Shown here in pieces: positions 30,001 to 45,000 of a stretch of DNA of 64,000 nucleotides (within the stretch, counting starts at the first letter, position 1; every line of letters starts with the position of its first letter). Location of the stretch: positions 81,223 through 145,222 of the forward strand of contig JAHHIM010000009.1 in NCBI GenBank assembly GCA_019358915.1. Reading direction: 5' to 3'. This DNA comes from Trichormus sp. ATA11-4-KO1. GTDB taxonomy: Bacteria > Cyanobacteriota > Cyanobacteriia > Cyanobacteriales > Nostocaceae. The position numbers are program-made.

Positions 30001-33000
30001 TGGAGCGAGGAAGCGCCAATTGGGAATTTTGTCCCTTACCAGTTCGGACATTCCGCACAATAGAAGTGGATGTCTCCAAAGCAGATGATCCGCAGGTTGC
30101 ATTAATGAAAGCGATCGCTAAACATGATCTTCAAGATGCTGTGGTACGACTAATTTACAAACTGCGATCGGAACAGATAGATATGATTGATAGCGCTGCT
30201 ATCCATCAGGCCTTAAGTCCGGCTCATAACTACACCATTCAAGCCGAATTAGTCAGTCAGTTAGCTAGACCAAGGATTCCCGAATTGAGTGCTAGTAGTA
30301 GTATCGACCCTAGGTCAGCTTTGCAAACTTACTTAAATAATCGCGAAGACTTGAAAGACATAGCTGCATCAATGTTAGAAGCAGCAGAAAAGTTATTAAC
30401 AGATGATGTAGAAATTTGGCTAGAAGGAGCCGCTTCTGATTAAATTAAAGGTTTGTAGTGAGGGCTTTAGCCCTCAAGATAAAACCAAGGGTGTGCAATT
30501 AATTATTTAATCAAACCCCTTCACCCCCGGAATATCCAGGACAAAATCTGCCCCATAAACAGCAGCCGGAGTTTGAAATCCCACCTTAGTTTCACCTTGA
30601 ATGATGCGTTGCATCACCGCCACAGCTGATAAGGCAGTAAAATCATAAGCCTCTGGCCCAGAAAGCCTAGCTGTGACTGTTTGACCAGACGCATCTTCCG
30701 CAAAACCAATTACTCTCACCTGACCTTTCGCGCGTTCCTCCGGACTTGGCCCAGTGGGTAAAGTTTTAATCAGACGAGCTAAAGCACTTTGGAATAGTGC
30801 TGATTTAAACAACCATCCCACATACTGGCTAATTTCCATCAGGAAGCGTACAGGGGCGGGAAACACCGTATAAACCTCAATGTTGGGGATACCAGTACTA
30901 TGGAACGCGGTGACAAGATCCGCTCGCCAAGGGTTAGTGACTGCTGTGACTGCACCAGCACCTAAATCTATTTTGCGCCGTTTCCCGGCTGGTCGAGCCG
31001 GGATCAGCTGACCTGCTTCTCTGACTACACCCATCTGATGTAGGCTAGGCAATACAGTGTTTGCAGTTCCTTGAGATACACCCCCCACCGTTTCATAGAT
31101 TAATATCAGTCGCTGGGCAGTCGGTAACTGATTTTTGAGGTAAACAGCTACGCAATCAGTAGGAACAACACCAAACCCCACACCAGGAAGCAACATAATC
31201 CCGGCATTTTTAGCTTCCAAGTCTCGCGCCTCTAAAGTTGCAAACTCTGGGACTTCCCCAGCTATATCTAGATAGTGGGTTTGAGTTTGTAGACAAGCAT
31301 CTACAAGTGGCTTTGAGGTTTTGGAGAAAAGCCCGGCGCAATTTAGTACAACCGTCACATCTGCAAGAGAGCGAGCGATCGCCTGCTGATCATCCAAGCC
31401 AAAAACCCGAAAATCCAAATTTAATTCTTTAGCTACTGCTGCTAGTGAATTCTGACTGCGTCCAGCCAAAATTAATTCAATTCCCTGACTTTTAGCGAAT
31501 TCAGCAATCAGTTTCCCTGCATAGCCAGTTGCACCATACAATAACATCTTTGATGTCATTATTTATCACCAAATTAAGTATTATTCGCAGTCTGCTGCCA
31601 TAATTTCACTTCTGGAGGTTCAACTAAAAATTCCTCTGATTTTGCCCCCAACGCCTTGATGTAAGGCTGTTCCATATGCTGTGCCAAAATTTCTTGGCTC
31701 ACCCAATTTTCGTGCAGCAGAAACCAAGAGGCATCTTCCAATGATTGATGTAAGTCATAATTAATACATCCCTCTTCCGCCCTTGTGAGATCAATAACAG
31801 GCTGGAATTCCTGCTTAAACTTTTCCTCCAATCCTGGCTTAACTTTCAAACTAGCGGTAACAGTGACTTGCTGATTTGACATTTTTTTCCTCTCTTTTTG
31901 GTAGTTTCTCAGTGCTTTTATAAGTGCTGAGTGCGCTTGCCCTGAGCGAAGCCGAAGGGGAGTGCTGAGTGAAAATACTACTTCCTATTCACCAGTTTCC
32001 AGTCCCCAGTTCATGACGGCTAGGTATTGATACTGTTAATAATTTGAGAAGGCTTGAGAAAGTTGTAAGGTATGGGACGAGTTTGATTTCTAATGTCTAT
32101 TTGTCGCTCTATTTCGTGTAAATCATGCTGGAACTGTACCAGAATTTCTTGCGCCAAACTATCAGCAAATTTTTCATCGTAGAAACCTAATTTATCGTAA
32201 TGGTAAGATGTCAAAATATGCGTCCACATTACCTGATCAGCAGCTTGTTTAAAAGGTGGCAGGATCTTCATGATGGTTTCCATATCCACACCCTTCGTTT
32301 CTGGCATAGGTTGGTAGGCTGCATAGGGCATATTGGGGACAAAAGCCATATATTCGTACTGGGCAAAATTCAAAGCCGAATGCAAAGGAGCGCAAGTGAA
32401 AACTACTACACTGATAATTTCAATCAGTTGTTCTAGAGTATCAATTCTCCCAGGCATACCCTTAACTCTACCACCATCTTGAGCCACTAATTCCTTCGCC
32501 CAGTTTTGTAGTTCCTGGTCTTCACTGAGGTCTTCTGGGGTTTGATAATAAAGTTTCAGGTATTGAGTAACAAACTTTTCAATGGCATTCCAAATTAATA
32601 TTCCATCATCCCGGAAAGGAAAGTGCGGCAAAACTTCGGCATCATCCATTTGGTTAGCTTTCATTAACCGGGGAAAGACAAACTTCTCTACACTCCATTC
32701 ATCGTAGGTTTTCACAATAAACCCTAGAGACTCTTCCAAAGCACCAGCCATAAAATTATCAACTGGCCCTCCCGGCTGTAAAAAGTAAAGACGACCCAAA
32801 TCGTTATCAAATAACATGAACCGGAAATGAGGTTTAAGCAGTAAAGCGATCGGATGATTTTCTGCCAATTGACGTGCTGTGGAAATAGCAAAAGGTGCCA
32901 TAACTGCATGAGTATAAGCAAAATGGCTGCCTAACTCTTGATGATTACCATCAGCAATTTGCACACAAGTTTTGGCGAGAAACCAATCTAAATGCGGATC

Positions 33001-42000: not shown

Positions 42001-45000
42001 ATTACATTGATAAGTTATTTACCTATGGCACTCCTCATGGTGGTATTCATTTTCAGATGGGAGGCGGCTTAATCGAAAGAGTCAGGGATACAGTTAGATT
42101 GAATAACGTTGACGACTTTGGCCCCCAGCGCATGTACGAATATTTCACACCTCAAATGCGGCAAAGGGCTGTGTTACCAAATGATTTTGATGCCCAAAGC
42201 CTTGATGATACTTTTCCGGCAGACCGAGTTTTTTGTATTATCGGTACTAATGCCCGTGATTATGAAGCAGCTTTTGGTCTGACACAAAAGACTGTTGGTG
42301 CCCAAAGTGATGGTCTAGTTCAGATTGAGAAAGCCTATGTTAGAGGCTCTCATCGTGCCTATATTCATCGCACTCATACTGGACGTTATGGGATGGTGAA
42401 TTCGGAAGAAGGCTATCAAAATTTGCAACGTTTTTTCTTTGGTGATATTCAGGTAAAAATATCCCTTGCCAATGTCGAATTAAGCGATCGCAATCATACT
42501 TTTTATCAAATGGAAGTCCGGGTGGCACTGCGTGGTCTACCTATTCCCATACATGAACAAGCGATTAATCATTATTGCCCAATTACACTAGAGTTAACTA
42601 GGGATAAACCCATCCCCTTATTTACAGCTTTTTTGGTGCCCCGTTATTCAGCCAGTGGTGATTGTACTTGTAGATATGCGATTAAATTAGCGTTGCATTC
42701 CTTCACTAGAAAAGAGAGGGAGTGGTTGTTTGGTAGCCATATCGACCAATTGCCTCTTTGGTCTGATTATCTCATCGTCGATGTCACGGCAATAGATGGT
42801 GTGTACAAGGCTCAGTACACCTGGAATTATGAAAATGATGAACCGCAACATCCCATAAATCCCAATCCCAATGCCAATGTTTTCTTAGCAGATATTCTTT
42901 TACCTGAACGAGGGCAAAAAGCTTTGGGTAAACAAGCAGCAGTTCATTTGGAGATTTGCCCGTGGAGTTAGGGGAGTGGGGAATGTTTTCTCTAATACCT
43001 GGGAATTATTTTTTAGCTGTTACAAAAGGTAAATTTATGCAGGGTAATCGTCAACAAACCGCTCTTATTACTGGTGCATCTGGTGGGATTGGCTATGAGT
43101 TCGTGAAGTTATTTGCTCAGGATGGCTACAATCTGGTATTAGTAGCTAGAAATGAGCAAAAATTAAATCAAATTGCTGATGAATTCCCGCGAAAATTTGG
43201 CATTAATGTCACAGTTATTGCTAAAGATTTGTCTCTTCCTACAGCGCCAGAGGAAATCTTTGCCCAGTTACAACAAGCATCCATTAAGGTTGATGTGCTG
43301 GTCAACAATGCTGGGTTTGCTACCTACGGATTATTTAACGAACTTGACTTGACTAAAGAACTGCAAATGGTACAGGTAAATGTAGTGTGTCTCACCCATT
43401 TAACTAAGTTGTTCTTAAAAGATATGGTGAAGCAAGGCTACGGCAAAATATTAAATGTAGCCTCAACTGCGGCTTTTCAACCAGGCCCATTGATGGCGGT
43501 TTATTACGCGACAAAAGCCTATGTCTTATTATTTTCGGAAGCGATCGCCAATGAATTAGAAGGTACTGGTGTCTCTGTGACTGCTGTTTGTCCAGGGCCT
43601 ACGGAATCTGGTTTTCAACAAAGAGCCGCCATGGAAGACTCTAAACTAGTCAGTGGTCAAAAGATTATGGATGCGGCAACTGTTGCCAAAATTGGTTATC
43701 GTGGCTTGTTAGACGGCAAAACTGTGGTTGTGCCTGGTGTGAAAAATAAGCTACTCACGGAAACAGTCAGATTCACACCCAGAAAGCTCGTGACTAAACT
43801 AGTCAGAAGTATGCAGGAAAGCAAACAATAGGTAATACGATTTACACAAAGACTACTCAAAATCCTCAGTGTGGTGTTAGGCTGTAGTATGCAAATAAAC
43901 ATAAATTATCGTTGTGTAAATCCTCACTCTATGTCTAAGTTAATATCAGCGTCATTGCTCGCTACAGCCTTGCTGTTGACATCTACCCATGACTCCAATA
44001 TTACACTGGCTGGAACCTGTGCTTCTCGGTGTGGGCCGCGGCCAATTCAGTTTACACCTGGACAACGTATTCGAGTTCAAGTAGTCAATCGCACACCACG
44101 CCTGATTACATTACAAAAACCTTCTGCTACTGATCCCATCTTCCTACGACCCGGACAGGAATTACAATTGGAACATGGAGATGGTACACAGCCAAATATG
44201 TCTCTTGTTTTCTGGGATGAAACAGGTCGGTCGTTACAAGCCAATGTCTCAAAACCCAACTTTGGCACATTGCAAGTGGAATTTCGTCCCACTTGGCGGA
44301 CTCCAGGCGATCGCTCTGTCTATATTCTCAATGATGGTCGGGTAGATGTGTTTTAACTGCTAGCAAATAGTGTTATGAGTTATGAGTTAAGCAACAACTT
44401 TTCATGTAAAACTCACAACTCATAACTGAACGTTTCTATTTTCTATTGTGCTAGACCAAGCTTTCCCACAACCTGCAACACCTCGCAAGCGCTTACCTAA
44501 TCAGCGTTGGCAAATTTATCCACAAAAACCAGAATTTGCCCAAAATTTGGCGATGGTGACAAATCTTTCCCCGATTATCAGCCAGCTGCTAATTAATCGT
44601 GGTATCGAAACACCAGAACAAGCACAGGCATTTTTAGATCCAGAATCGTTAATTTTGCCTTCACCCTGGGAAGAATTCCCCGATTTGGCGATAAGTGTAG
44701 AGTTGTTGCAAGAGGCGATCGCATCCCAAGCCAAAATCGCCATCTGTGGTGACTATGATGCTGATGGAATGACTAGTACGGCTTTACTGTTGCGTAGTCT
44801 CCGCACCTTAGGCGCTCAAGTGAATTATGCTATCCCCAGTCGGATGCACGAAGGTTATGGCATTAATCAACGGATTGTGGAAGAATTTCACGATGAAGGT
44901 GTCAGATTAATTCTCACTGTTGATAATGGGATTTCGGCATTTGCACCCATTGCTAGAGCCAGGGAACTGGGTTTAAAAGTAATTGTCACCGATCACCACG

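Follow-up and report, generated by a model that had tools for sequence, protein, structure and literature searches.

In the plant octadecanoid (OPDA/jasmonate) pathway, an acyl hydrolase, a 13-lipoxygenase (13-LOX), a CYP74 allene oxide synthase, an allene oxide cyclase (AOC) and OPR3 are used. Among bacterial systems, the closest characterised one to the dihaem enzymes of this study, as far as the available part of its published description allows the likening, is the oleate-diol synthase of Pseudomonas aeruginosa ('FadCcp' subfamily; PMC4496055). It comprises two RoxA-like dihaem enzymes, the 10S-dioxygenase PA2077 and the 7,10-diol synthase PA2078, which dioxygenate oleate and isomerise its hydroperoxide. 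The only solved relative of the dihaem enzymes studied here is RoxA/RoxB (4b2n), described in the accessible part of PMC6311187 as secreted 70-kDa enzymes of rubber degradation. Haem proteins are also coupled to lipoxygenases in fusions of a catalase-related b-type haem protein with a cytoplasmic LOX, namely coral AOS-8R-LOX and the cyanobacterial catalase-LOX proteins mentioned in PMC11719350. Known lipoxygenases include the Cyanothece mini-lipoxygenase CspLOX2 (5med/5mef; PMC5437038, in part) and the 547-aa NpLOX2 of N. punctiforme (PMC10177866), reported in the available part of a review as a linoleate 13-LOX (PMC10487465). Here, we describe a conserved gene set that unites a lipoxygenase, a lipase, three dihaem proteins and a probable Fe-S flavin reductase, and whose most likely role is to produce or convert oxidised fatty acids. 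A full-text literature search returned no description of this gene cluster.

A conserved and modular gene cluster

The window, a 64-kb stretch of the genome of the filamentous cyanobacterium Trichormus sp. ATA11-4-KO1, contains eleven cluster genes, seven minus-strand and four plus-strand ORFs between 30507 and 44356 (Table 1), each located where the genome-wide survey's note had placed it. The minus-strand genes are separated by gaps of 14-137 bp, including 14 bp between g73 and the upstream g74 and 36 bp between g75 and g76, and none of the terminator-like sites listed falls within these gaps.

Table 1. Features of the cluster in window coordinates
Feature	Position	Strand	Evidence
g73, Sacchrp_dh_NADP (350 aa), NAD(P)-binding oxidoreductase of the saccharopine-dehydrogenase-like family; LOX add-on module	30507..31559	-	Pfam PF03435, E 1.1e-11
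g74, ABM-fold protein (102 aa); LOX add-on module	31574..31882	-	Pfam PF03992, E 3.6e-17
g75, mini-lipoxygenase (548 aa)	32020..33666	-	PF00305, E 2.1e-60
g76, membrane-anchored dihaem c-type enzyme, RoxA superfamily (480 aa)	33703..35145	-	NF040606, 187.1 bits; PF21419, 1.1e-13
g77, membrane protein (141 aa), four hydrophobic segments	35224..35649	-	Hydrophobicity; genomic position
g78, membrane-anchored dihaem c-type enzyme, RoxA superfamily (491 aa)	35664..37139	-	NF040606, 202 bits
g79, OYE-type FMN reductase (461 aa), first gene of the minus-strand set	37245..38630	-	PF00724, 1.5e-64
Divergent intergenic region, 621 bp	38631..39251	.	Conserved blocks among Nostocaceae loci
g80, exported third dihaem protein	39252..41279	+	Two CxxCH; distant RoxA/MauG superfamily match
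g81, alpha/beta-hydrolase lipase-like protein (479 aa)	41532..42971	+	PGAP1, DUF676, Lipase_2, LCAT matches
g82, classical SDR	42956..43831	+	PF00106, 2e-48
g83, small protein with probable signal peptide	43871..44356	+	ORF; no family

We compared the best 80 of 582 related loci, many of them from closely related Nostoc, so that the counts below are not independent. The paralogous dihaem pair was found in 72 of these 80 loci, and the Fe-S OYE lay directly upstream of it in 67 of 68 testable loci. Of the 68 testable loci, 42 had the lipoxygenase after the pair and 26 lacked it, and one single-contig genome, 99% complete, kept the rest of the cluster, core included, with no lipoxygenase anywhere. 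Given the near-constant OYE and pair, the partial distribution of LOX and this LOX-free genome, the lipoxygenase lies outside the invariant core, which consists of the OYE reductase, the two membrane-anchored dihaem enzymes and the 4-TM protein g77. The earlier view of LOX as the hub of the cluster therefore does not hold. The core is also found in Acidobacteriota, and all five other Nostocaceae genomes with the pair retain the OYE, the pair, g80 and the SDR. Among the same best 80 loci, 56 of the 63 that could be tested had g80 no more than 10 kb upstream of the pair, and the SDR was present at most cyanobacterial loci. The neighbour counts of the earlier survey agree in kind with this sample.

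At LOX-containing loci the arrangement is uniform: gene order and orientation were identical in 42/42, and ABM and Sacchrp_dh each accompanied LOX in 37 of the 38 loci with at least 4500 bp downstream (again from the best 80 of 582). The same arrangement occurs in distant cyanobacterial families, namely Pleurocapsaceae (L079), Aliterellaceae (L061) and Hapalosiphonaceae (L093). The genome's second lipoxygenase has no such neighbour genes, and the link to the cluster is thus specific to the mini-LOX g75. The His-free protein g77, which matched no Pfam or NCBIfam family, lay between the dihaem genes at all 42 LOX-containing loci and at 7 of the 26 lacking LOX, while at other loci a version 35-44% identical was placed after the pair. 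Conceivably, the LOX-ABM-Sacchrp_dh triplet functions independently of the OYE-dihaem unit and the two are linked by chance in Nostocales, since either module is found without the other and their predicted compartments differ. However, the invariant order and orientation, a g77 version that tracks LOX, the sharing of the arrangement by the three distant families and the 36-bp gap between g75 and g76 all argue against this possibility, which we regard as very unlikely.

Dihaem proteins and the Fe-S reductase

The two proteins of the pair are 49% identical over 473 residues, as previously noted, and each contains two CxxCH motifs (residues 118 and 324 in g76; 122 and 334 in g78) and one N-terminal hydrophobic segment (residues 4-22 and 19-37, respectively). 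Both score above the 150-bit cut-off of NF040606. A PDB sequence search with g78 reproduced the earlier match to RoxA (4b2n_A, 1.4e-08) over about 60 residues (388-448), the profile of the g76/g78 family reached 8.9e-27 against the same chain, and RoxA was the sole Foldseek match below E 0.001 (6.4e-08) for the g78 AF2 model (pLDDT 75). This likeness is pronounced in the C-terminal haem domain alone, and not around the catalytic N-terminal haem, where RoxA has F317 and W302. Apart from the two CxxCH, g76 and g78 share with RoxA/RoxB the C-terminal CASCH motif, the MauG motif (PYLHNGSVP within PY(F/L)HNGSVP) and, towards the C-terminus, a distal His that aligns with RoxA H641, signatures listed in the accessible part of the rubber-oxygenase review (PMC6311187). 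Nevertheless, they fall far under the RoxA/RoxB equivalog cut-offs (NF050033/NF050034), with 59-72 bits against 900-1000, and, unlike the secreted rubber-degrading enzymes, they are anchored, smaller and encoded beside lipases and LOX.

Comparison with PA2077/PA2078, in the part of the description available (PMC4496055), revealed a closer parallel: both pairs are tandem paralogous dihaem c-type proteins, extracytoplasmic (by prediction here) and nearer to RoxA than to classical peroxidases, and PA2077/PA2078 act in an oxylipin pathway, as is proposed for g76 and g78. In contrast, g76 and g78 have 480-491 residues with N-terminal membrane anchors, against about 65 kDa, and their haem motifs lie 206 and 212 residues apart, compared with 245 and 235 in PA2077/PA2078. 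Moreover, the pair described here is always accompanied by the Fe-S OYE and the 4-TM protein, and often by LOX, a third dihaem protein, a lipase and an SDR. In our tree, the g76-type clade (28 rows, support 81) and the g78-type clade (31 rows, SH-aLRT 100) each hold cyanobacterial and acidobacterial rows, so the two enzymes have long formed a unit.

The third dihaem protein, g80, had been described as without any family; we find it to be a distant branch of the RoxA/MauG superfamily, to which g76 and g78 also belong. It matched NF040606 at E 2.8e-13 (49.9 bits, under the 150-bit cut-off) and the Pfam RoxA-like_Cyt-c family at E 5e-05, and its family aligned with that of g76/g78 over 192 columns (hhalign probability 99.1%, E 3.9e-19). 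In addition, its AF2 model (pLDDT 78.8) resembled MauG, over residues 78-675, and bacterial dihaem peroxidases with Z of about 11. As reported before, a PDB sequence search with g80 gave nothing at E<=0.1, the best match being 4b2n_A (E 0.31); its representative relatives at E<=0.001 number 1755. The two CxxCH previously counted lie at 199 and 409, after one N-terminal hydrophobic segment. The ORF spans 675 aa from a TTG, or 657 aa if translation starts at the ATG of residue 19, and the true start is likely the ATG of residue 7 or 19, with a predicted signal peptide ending between ALA and SEY.

The proteins have the fold of dihaem cytochrome c peroxidases and MauG, which, together with the NCBI family name 'di-heme-cytochrome C peroxidase', raises the possibility of lipid-peroxide repair or detoxification. 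In that case, cytochrome c6 or plastocyanin would donate electrons to the dihaem proteins, which as peroxidases would reduce lipid hydroperoxides on the outer or lumenal side of the membrane; damaged acyl chains would be cut out by the lipase, and reactive enals and enones cleared by the OYE and SDR. Both OYEs and SDRs are well known for detoxifying lipid-derived electrophiles, and the LOX-free loci and genome described above also fit this account. Yet at the C-terminal haem stands a conserved His of RoxA type, where classical peroxidases have Met, a Pfam search did not match CCP_MauG to the dihaem proteins, and a peroxide-making LOX is joined to the core in 42/68 of the testable loci from the best 80, at a distance of 36 bp here. 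In the available parts of PMC4496055 and PMC6311187, furthermore, the characterised members of the RoxA branch are only oxygenases or isomerases. Taken together, we consider repair an unlikely role.

The reductase g79 aligned with E. coli FadH (1ps9_A, 2,4-dienoyl-CoA reductase) over residues 6-266 and 355-427, and thereby shares an FMN TIM barrel followed by a C-x2-C-x2-C stretch, whose FadH-like Cys cluster probably holds a 4Fe-4S centre. Unlike FadH (671 aa), it has no FAD or NADPH domain.

The mini-lipoxygenase and the proposed oxidative pathway

The lipoxygenase g75 lacks both the N-terminal beta-barrel and a signal peptide, and it matched the CspLOX2 variant 5mef_A over its full length at 3.4e-129, in agreement with the earlier 3e-129; the coral AOS-8R-LOX structures 3dy5 and 3fg1 were also among its PDB matches. 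The mini-LOX architecture is shared with CspLOX2, but, judged against the accessible part of PMC5437038, the clamp residues are replaced (Ile296 by Asp, Ala300 by Gly, Leu304 by Phe), the C-terminal residue is Thr, and Gln occupies the site of the first His ligand to iron. Because of this Gln, the chemistry may not be standard. The unusual active-site signature 'GNHQELG(S/T)H' is present in 39/39 matched orthologues and 'LFDN.LG(R/K)' in 41/42. By length and species only, g75 is presumably the orthologue of NpLOX2. Of its companions, g74 is possibly a cofactor-less monooxygenase, isomerase or cyclase, and g73 had no PDB sequence match at E<=0.001.

The lipase-like g81 shows its Pfam matches over residues 100-176, has an AHSMGG nucleophile elbow and lacks a signal peptide. 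In other genomes its place is taken by a patatin or another hydrolase, and in one by a CcsA-like gene; patatins occur in the cluster at loci L090, L061, L079 and L093, and a 'THSWG' hydrolase at L012 and L079. This recurrence of unrelated lipase families points to acyl lipids as the probable substrate.

With confidence a little above even, we favour an oxidative conversion of unsaturated fatty acyl chains by the modular cluster, as an undescribed oxylipin-type pathway in which LOX is an optional input; its substrate, reaction order, topology and co-transcription are what we infer. A free fatty acid would be released by g81 here, and by a patatin or other hydrolase elsewhere. The anciently duplicated, membrane-anchored g78 and g76, with haem domains presumably toward the periplasm or thylakoid lumen, may work at the membrane on unsaturated acyl chains or the hydroperoxides of these, by oxygenation, rearrangement or both, in analogy to the alkene dioxygenases RoxA/RoxB and to PA2077/PA2078. 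The putative cytoplasmic FMN/[4Fe-4S] ene-reductase g79 and the dehydrogenases (SDR and Sacchrp_dh-like) would then reduce enone or carbonyl products, and g80 may be an additional oxygenase or peroxidase with an accessory role in cyanobacteria. The LOX-ABM-Sacchrp_dh add-on, present at about six of ten loci among the best 80 of 582, could feed PUFA hydroperoxides into the core or, alternatively, form a side branch off it. The conservation of the cluster, the recurring lipases and the PA2077/PA2078 precedent thus support the general lipid-oxidising idea of the genome-wide survey's note, though not a pathway centred on LOX.

The proposed scheme follows the same logical order as the plant octadecanoid pathway, from lipase through LOX, a haem enzyme potentially acting on hydroperoxides and a small possible cyclase/isomerase (ABM here, SnoaL-like in L061) to an OYE. 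However, the cluster has neither CYP74 nor a lipocalin-type AOC, its haem enzymes are extracytoplasmic c-type dihaem proteins, and its OYE carries an Fe-S cluster motif. As in the haem-LOX fusions, a LOX is genetically coupled to a haem protein and hydroperoxide conversion is proposed, whereas here the haem proteins are separate and exported. The predicted compartments speak against the pathway: LOX, ABM, OYE, lipase and both dehydrogenases have no predicted signal peptides, the haem domains must be matured extracytoplasmically, and with the enzymes thus split across the membrane, intermediates would need two membrane crossings.

The dihaem enzymes might instead attack carotenoids or polyprenols within the membrane and cut their C=C bonds, with the OYE, SDR and GMC enzymes processing apocarotenoid aldehydes and LOX as an unrelated neighbour or co-oxidiser. 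In support of this notion, the only solved or well-studied relatives, RoxA and RoxB, cleave polyisoprene according to the available part of PMC6311187, the organism is rich in carotenoids and the enzymes are anchored in its membranes, and GMC oxidoreductases follow the pair at LOX-less Nostoc and Pyrinomonadaceae loci. The recurring lipases and patatins and the LOX at 42/68 testable loci (best 80 of 582) point to acyl lipids instead, the scanned loci showed no carotenoid or isoprenoid gene, and the RoxA, RoxB and RoxC models scored 59-80 bits against cut-offs of 900-1000; we consider such cleavage very unlikely.

Among the remaining plus-strand genes, g82 probably starts at the ATG at about 43034, and elsewhere its tblastn matches, found in other genomes, start only at residues 19-29. 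The small secreted protein of the earlier note, g83, is present and has a probable signal peptide, but it matched no Pfam or NCBIfam family and, detected in 11/80 loci (best 80 of 582), is a peripheral, inconstant member. The divergent intergenic region gave no Rfam match; a MAFFT alignment of 13 orthologous Nostocaceae regions revealed conserved blocks that include palindromes at 38929-38945 and 39028-39041.

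Organisation of the divergent gene sets

The lipoxygenase gene belongs to eleven intact ORFs arranged in two divergent sets, in full agreement with the coordinates that the genome-wide survey's note had assigned to them. On the minus strand, the intergenic gaps from g79 to g73 measure 14-137 bp, and the region that separates the two sets contains blocks conserved among Nostocaceae loci, two palindromes among them. No regulator gene was found within the cluster, and an Rfam scan of window positions 29000-46000 at E≤0.1 returned no match. Scans for promoters and terminators recorded fewer sigma-70-like sites than in shuffled sequences (22 observed versus 35.3) and terminator-like sites at chance level (15 versus 13.9). 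The cluster's neighbors are unrelated housekeeping genes: RecJ borders it at one end, and an SbcD-like phosphoesterase, Uma2 and ferrochelatase at the opposite end.

Features of the lipoxygenase-dihaem cluster and its vicinity (coordinates within the window)
Feature	Description	Coordinates	Strand	Position
g79	Old-Yellow-Enzyme-type flavoprotein (OYE)	37245-38630	minus	first in transcription order
g78	dihaem c-type protein	35664-37139	minus	second in transcription order
g77	141-aa protein with four hydrophobic segments	35224-35649	minus	third in transcription order
g76	second dihaem protein	33703-35145	minus	fourth in transcription order
g75	lipoxygenase (LOX), 548 aa	32020-33666	minus	fifth in transcription order
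g74	ABM-fold protein	31574-31882	minus	sixth in transcription order
g73	saccharopine-dehydrogenase-like NAD(P) oxidoreductase (Sacchrp_dh)	30507-31559	minus	last in transcription order
g80	third dihaem protein	39252-41279	plus	first gene past the 621-bp intergenic region
g81	alpha/beta-hydrolase lipase-like protein		plus	after g80
g82	SDR		plus	after g81
g83	small protein with signal-peptide-like start		plus	after g82
Divergent region	621 bp	38631-39251		between g79 and g80
Palindrome	AAGGTTA..TAACCTT	38929-38945		in divergent region
Palindrome	TTGTAAATTTACAA	39028-39041		in divergent region
Opposite-strand ORF	87 aa	34615-34878	plus	inside g76
Opposite-strand ORF	104 aa	40238-40552	minus	inside g80
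Ferrochelatase	with C-terminal membrane helix	26726-27892		about 2.6 kb from cluster end

The two opposite-strand ORFs that lie inside g76 and g80 are most likely shadow ORFs. The proximity of the ferrochelatase gene is probably a coincidence, even though the cluster encodes six haem c sites.

We predicted the topology from the N-terminal segments of the proteins and from the fact that haem c must be attached outside the cytoplasm. LOX, ABM, OYE, the lipase and the two dehydrogenases would be located in the cytoplasm, g76 and g78 would be anchored so that their haem domains lie outside it, g80 and g83 would be exported, and g77 would be integral to the membrane.

Dihaem proteins related to RoxA

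Two CxxCH motifs, and no more, are present in each of g76, g78 and g80, along with a single N-terminal hydrophobic segment, and g76 and g78 are 49% identical to each other, both as previously noted. The two paralogs matched the NCBIfam family NF040606 ('di-heme-cytochrome C peroxidase') with 187.1 and 202 bits, respectively, thereby passing its curated cut-off of 150, and the match was strongest across profile positions 413-524. No match to Pfam CCP_MauG was obtained at E≤0.01 for g76, g78 or g80. A PDB sequence search reproduced the reported similarity of g78 to the rubber oxygenase RoxA (4b2n_A, 1.4e-08), and a profile built from 22 g76/g78-family sequences matched RoxA at 8.9e-27. Likewise, RoxA was the sole PDB match below E 0.001 (6.4e-08, TM 0.49) in a Foldseek search with the AF2 model of g78 (pLDDT 75). 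Among the 120 homologs listed, those that were named at all appeared only as 'c-type cytochrome', 'cytochrome c', 'mono/diheme cytochrome c family protein' or 'hypothetical protein'.

Motif comparison provided further details of this relationship. The C-terminal haem motif reads CASCH in all three proteins (position 324 in g76, 334 in g78 and 409 in g80), and the MauG motif reads APYLHNGSVP in both g76 and g78 and is invariant in the g76/g78-family alignment. In the signature table of the rubber oxygenases, as given in PMC6311187, CASCH is also listed, and of the MauG motif, PY(F/L/M)HNGSVP, the PYLHNGSVP form belongs to RoxB. For the C-terminal haem, HMMER alignments pair the GH of 'NSGHLYG' (H470 of g78, invariant in the family alignment) with RoxA 'NGGHDF', whose histidine is the ligand H641, which points to H470 as the second axial ligand. 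The alignments with 4b2n begin only at RoxA residue 334, past F317 and W302 of the catalytic N-terminal haem; the family does have a conserved Trp, in 'LHWDG', which may or may not correspond to W302. g76 and g78 resemble RoxA and RoxB, as far as these are characterized in PMC6311187, in their two CxxCH motifs, CASCH, MauG motif and C-terminal distal His, but differ in scoring far below the equivalog cut-offs of NF050033 (RoxA; 59.7 and 59.2 bits against 1000) and NF050034 (RoxB; 71.6 and 60.5 bits against 900). Both also fall far under the RoxC equivalog cut-off.

The closest functional parallel comes from Pseudomonas aeruginosa, where, according to the description in PMC4496055, the oleate 10S-dioxygenase PA2077 and the 7,10-diol synthase (hydroperoxide isomerase) PA2078 are tandem dihaem paralogs, grouped with RoxA and given the name 'FadCcp'. 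On that account, RoxA-type dihaem enzymes that act in pairs on fatty acids are already known. Judged by the published description, g76 and g78 are like FadCcp in being neighboring, 49% identical paralogs related to RoxA, but their haem-motif spacing is 206 and 212 residues, respectively, compared with 245 and 235 residues reported for PA2077/PA2078. A homolog search with a full-length Geminocystis protein of NF040606 (569 aa) gave no P. aeruginosa protein among the 120 relatives listed, neither NF040606 nor the lipoxygenase family was matched in any of 14 control genomes, and an Atlas search retrieved only unnamed RoxA-like clusters.

The survey's note had described g80 as being without any family, a claim that did not hold up, although its PDB sequence search again gave no match below 0.1. 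By profile, g80 matched NF040606 (E 2.8e-13, 49.9 bits, under the 150-bit cut-off) and Pfam RoxA-like_Cyt-c (E 5e-05), while its RoxA and RoxB equivalog scores were 15.7 and 15.3 bits. A 50%-clustered library held 1755 representative relatives of g80 at E≤0.001 and 385 at ≤1e-30, and the g80-family profile aligned to that of g76/g78 over the C-terminal 192 columns with a probability of 99.1% (E 3.9e-19). Its AF2 model (pLDDT 78.8) aligned with MauG over residues 78-675 at a Z of about 11 and with bacterial cytochrome c peroxidases at Z 8-10; what it shares with these proteins is the fold only. The MauG motif of g80 is degenerate (APFLHNNTLG), and H654, invariant in the g80-family alignment, is a candidate second axial His of the C-terminal haem.

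An apparent 1144-1145-aa open frame fusing g78, g77 and g76 in two genomes was ruled out by stop codons between the genes, and a complex prediction for g78 and g77 scored 0.00, which gives no verdict and counts neither for nor against an interaction.

Conservation and modularity of the locus

In an even sample of the phylum, matches to NF040606 over the cut-off were found in 9 of 301 genomes, including the genome under study. All five other same-family genomes with the pair keep the SDR, g80, OYE, g78 and g76, and the LOX-ABM-Sacchrp_dh module adjoins the pair in only two of them. In two of the three genomes without an adjoining LOX, a lipoxygenase is encoded elsewhere, and the third (single contig, 99% complete) carries the pair with no lipoxygenase anywhere.

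We then compared the eleven window proteins with 80 loci, the best of 582 g78 relatives in species-representative genomes, by tblastn (E≤1e-8, at least half of the query covered); these loci are the closest relatives of g78, many of them from near-identical Nostoc, and the proportions apply to this sample and should not be read as counts of independent events. The paralogous pair was found in 72 of the 80 loci. OYE lay directly upstream of it in 67 of the 68 loci with at least 1600 bp upstream, and a g80-like gene lay within 10 kb upstream in 56 of 63 (at least 4800 bp available). LOX directly followed the pair in 42 of 68 loci with at least 2200 bp available and was absent in 26. Where LOX was present and at least 4500 bp lay downstream, ABM and Sacchrp_dh each occurred in 37 of 38 loci. 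The g77-type gene was placed between the dihaem genes in every LOX-containing locus (42/42) and in 7 of the 26 LOX-less ones; many of the remaining LOX-less loci carry a g77 version, 35-44% identical, after the pair. The gene order is fixed even between cyanobacterial families that are distant from each other, which contradicts the reading that the LOX module and the dihaem-OYE core are two independent modules that merely happen to be adjacent; we regard that reading as improbable.

In LOX-less Nostoc loci of type B, a g77-like four-helix membrane domain forms one protein with a soluble domain, about 290 aa long, that belongs to no family, and a GMC oxidoreductase comes next (L047:12943-14223 and L047:14234-15820; also L046 and L052-L056). 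A GMC oxidoreductase after the pair also occurs in Pyrinomonadaceae (Acidobacteriota), whose loci consist of OYE, a g78-type gene, in some cases a g77-type gene, and a g76-type gene. Here, tblastn with the window proteins detected no LOX and no g80, and the loci adjoin an alpha/beta hydrolase, an ADC-like protein and GMC oxidoreductases. One Pyrinomonadaceae locus (L080) has, at its 5' end, a third, divergent dihaem copy upstream of OYE, which is N-terminally cut and sits on a long branch of the tree.

The LOX-less loci and the peroxidase fold would both agree with a system that detoxifies lipid peroxides. We consider this reading unlikely; a LOX that makes peroxides and is joined to the core is harder to reconcile with it, and so is haem ligation of the RoxA type.

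A quick maximum-likelihood tree (IQ-TREE) of 63 dihaem proteins resolved a g78-type clade (31 rows, SH-aLRT 100) and a g76-type clade (28 rows, support 81). Cyanobacteriota and Acidobacteriota are both present in each clade, indicating that the g76/g78 duplication is older than the spread of the module. At the 93% level, only four positions are fixed differently between the clades, too few for assigning roles to either type. Single g76-type genes, about 61% identical to g76, were observed in two genomes of another cyanobacterial family (L013:9703-11223 in G068 and L014:9926-11383 in G153), where they stand without OYE, partner or LOX; their products nest within the g76-type clade on a long branch.

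A full-text search of the literature outside subscription journals found no description of a lipoxygenase-dihaem-OYE cluster, nor did we find one in a review from 2026 that covers bacterial lipoxygenases, or in a preprint about the ecology of bacterial LOX enzymes. The terms 'gene cluster' and 'operon' do not occur in the review (PMC13319228), and in the available text of PMC5437038, PMC10177866 and this review, cyanobacterial lipoxygenases are handled singly, as isolated enzymes. We regard the architecture as undescribed, and it is conserved; the bacterial oxylipin system that it would represent is based on dihaem enzymes of the RoxA/FadCcp type, and several of its enzymes are unusual.

Accessory enzymes and a putative oxylipin route

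The lipoxygenase g75 is closely related to CspLOX2, the mini-LOX of Cyanothece, and its reported match to 5mef_A was recovered at 3.4e-129 (PF00305, 205.5 bits). Of the five iron ligands of lipoxygenases (three His, Asn and the C-terminal carboxylate), the second His, the third His and the Asn are aligned and conserved; Gln243 occupies the position of the first His, with His242 one residue earlier, and the C-terminal residue is Thr, not Ile. Among 42 cluster-linked LOX sequences, all 39 regex matches read 'GNHQELG(S/T)H'. Relative to the 'active-site clamp' defined for CspLOX2 in PMC5437038, the g75 orthologs display Ile296 to Asp, Ala300 to Gly and Leu304 to Phe exchanges ('LFDN.LG(R/K)..F' in 41/42), of which Ala300 to Gly falls at the Coffa-Brash position, where Gly is typical of R-lipoxygenases. 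These atypical features, at LOX residues of about 241-253 and 284-296 and at the C-terminal Thr, are conserved in the sampled orthologs. The metal site and the specificity of g75 may be non-standard.

The OYE g79 (PF00724, FMN TIM barrel, 218.9 bits) aligns with the E. coli 2,4-dienoyl-CoA reductase FadH (1ps9) over the FMN barrel and then over g79 residues 355-427, where its C-x2-C-x2-C stretch, 4Fe-4S-binding in the FadH family, is aligned to 1ps9 residues 272-344. Unlike FadH (671 aa), g79 ends at 461 aa and lacks the FAD/NADPH domains. It thus represents a short Fe-S OYE form with a FadH/TMADH-type Cys stretch and no obvious electron donor. For g73, no sequence relative was found in the PDB at E≤0.001.

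Across lineages, the cluster includes an acyl hydrolase of one family or another: the DUF676/PGAP1-like g81 here, a patatin directly after g76 in Hydrococcus (L090) and after LOX in Aliterella (L061), large patatin proteins in Waterburya (L079) and Aetokthonos (L093), and a 317-aa 'THSWG' hydrolase between g76 and LOX in L012 and L079. This recurrence of acyl hydrolases speaks for a lipid substrate. Aliterella also has two SnoaL-like genes between g76 and LOX. A module for carotenoid or isoprenoid cleavage would agree with RoxA chemistry; the lipases do not fit it, and we give this reading little credence. In one Nostocaceae locus (L012:4788-5840, G225), a CcsA-like cytochrome c assembly gene stands between the SDR and g80, where the lipase would otherwise lie, which fits the need for maturing three c-type haem proteins.

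For the oxylipin system favored here, what is observed is which genes are present, which families they belong to and how far they are conserved; we infer the chemistry from this, and it would require intermediates to pass through the membrane. An unsaturated fatty acid would be freed by the acyl hydrolase, and the dihaem pair would oxygenate and rearrange it, or its hydroperoxide, at the membrane surface, as PA2077/PA2078 do. Enone or carbonyl products could then be reduced by the Fe-S OYE and the dehydrogenases, and the LOX module, where present, would supply polyunsaturated hydroperoxides or a side branch.

A bolder version, which we hold to be a long shot, takes the cluster as a full prokaryotic counterpart of the plant octadecanoid route, assembled from unrelated parts for the lipase, LOX, dihaem, ABM and OYE steps. 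Linolenate or linoleate freed by the lipase would be converted to a hydroperoxide by the atypical mini-LOX; the RoxA-type membrane-anchored dihaem protein would replace CYP74 and yield an unstable epoxide or allene oxide; the ABM-fold protein (SnoaL-like in Aliterella) would cyclize or isomerize that product; and the Fe-S OYE would replace OPR3 in reducing the ring or enone. Pfam and NCBIfam detected no P450 or AOC family (CYP74 or lipocalin-type AOC) among the eleven proteins, and the two systems are analogous in enzyme classes only. Were this version true, a cyclopentenone-, ketol- or diol-type signal might act in the wounding of Nostocales or in plant and lichen symbioses, and the LOX-less acidobacterial core would be ancestral, acting on mono-unsaturated acids like the Pseudomonas diol synthase.

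Bacterial oxylipin pathways are poorly known, and the cluster offers a conserved candidate pathway that is testable in tractable Nostoc. It also places the RoxA superfamily, whose characterized members have so far been only rubber oxygenases and the Pseudomonas diol synthase, in a new functional context, and brings with it an Fe-S OYE without the usual reductase domains and a lipoxygenase with an altered iron site. Such a pathway could explain lipid-signal production by symbiotic cyanobacteria and could yield new biocatalysts for the oxyfunctionalization of fatty acids.

In N. punctiforme NIES-2108, which carries the whole cluster (L033), the cluster LOX is 546-550 aa long, depending on the start codon. 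On the basis of length and species only, it is probably NpLOX2, since that N. punctiforme enzyme is given as 547 aa in PMC10177866; the review PMC10487465, citing Lang & Feussner 2007, lists NpLOX2 as a linoleate 13-LOX. The genome under study encodes a second lipoxygenase of 614 aa on contig 3 (L099:8960-10804), which has the classical H-x4-H-x4-H motif and lies in unrelated surroundings: RNase H, a PIN-domain gene, an ABC transporter and a carotenoid synthesis gene.
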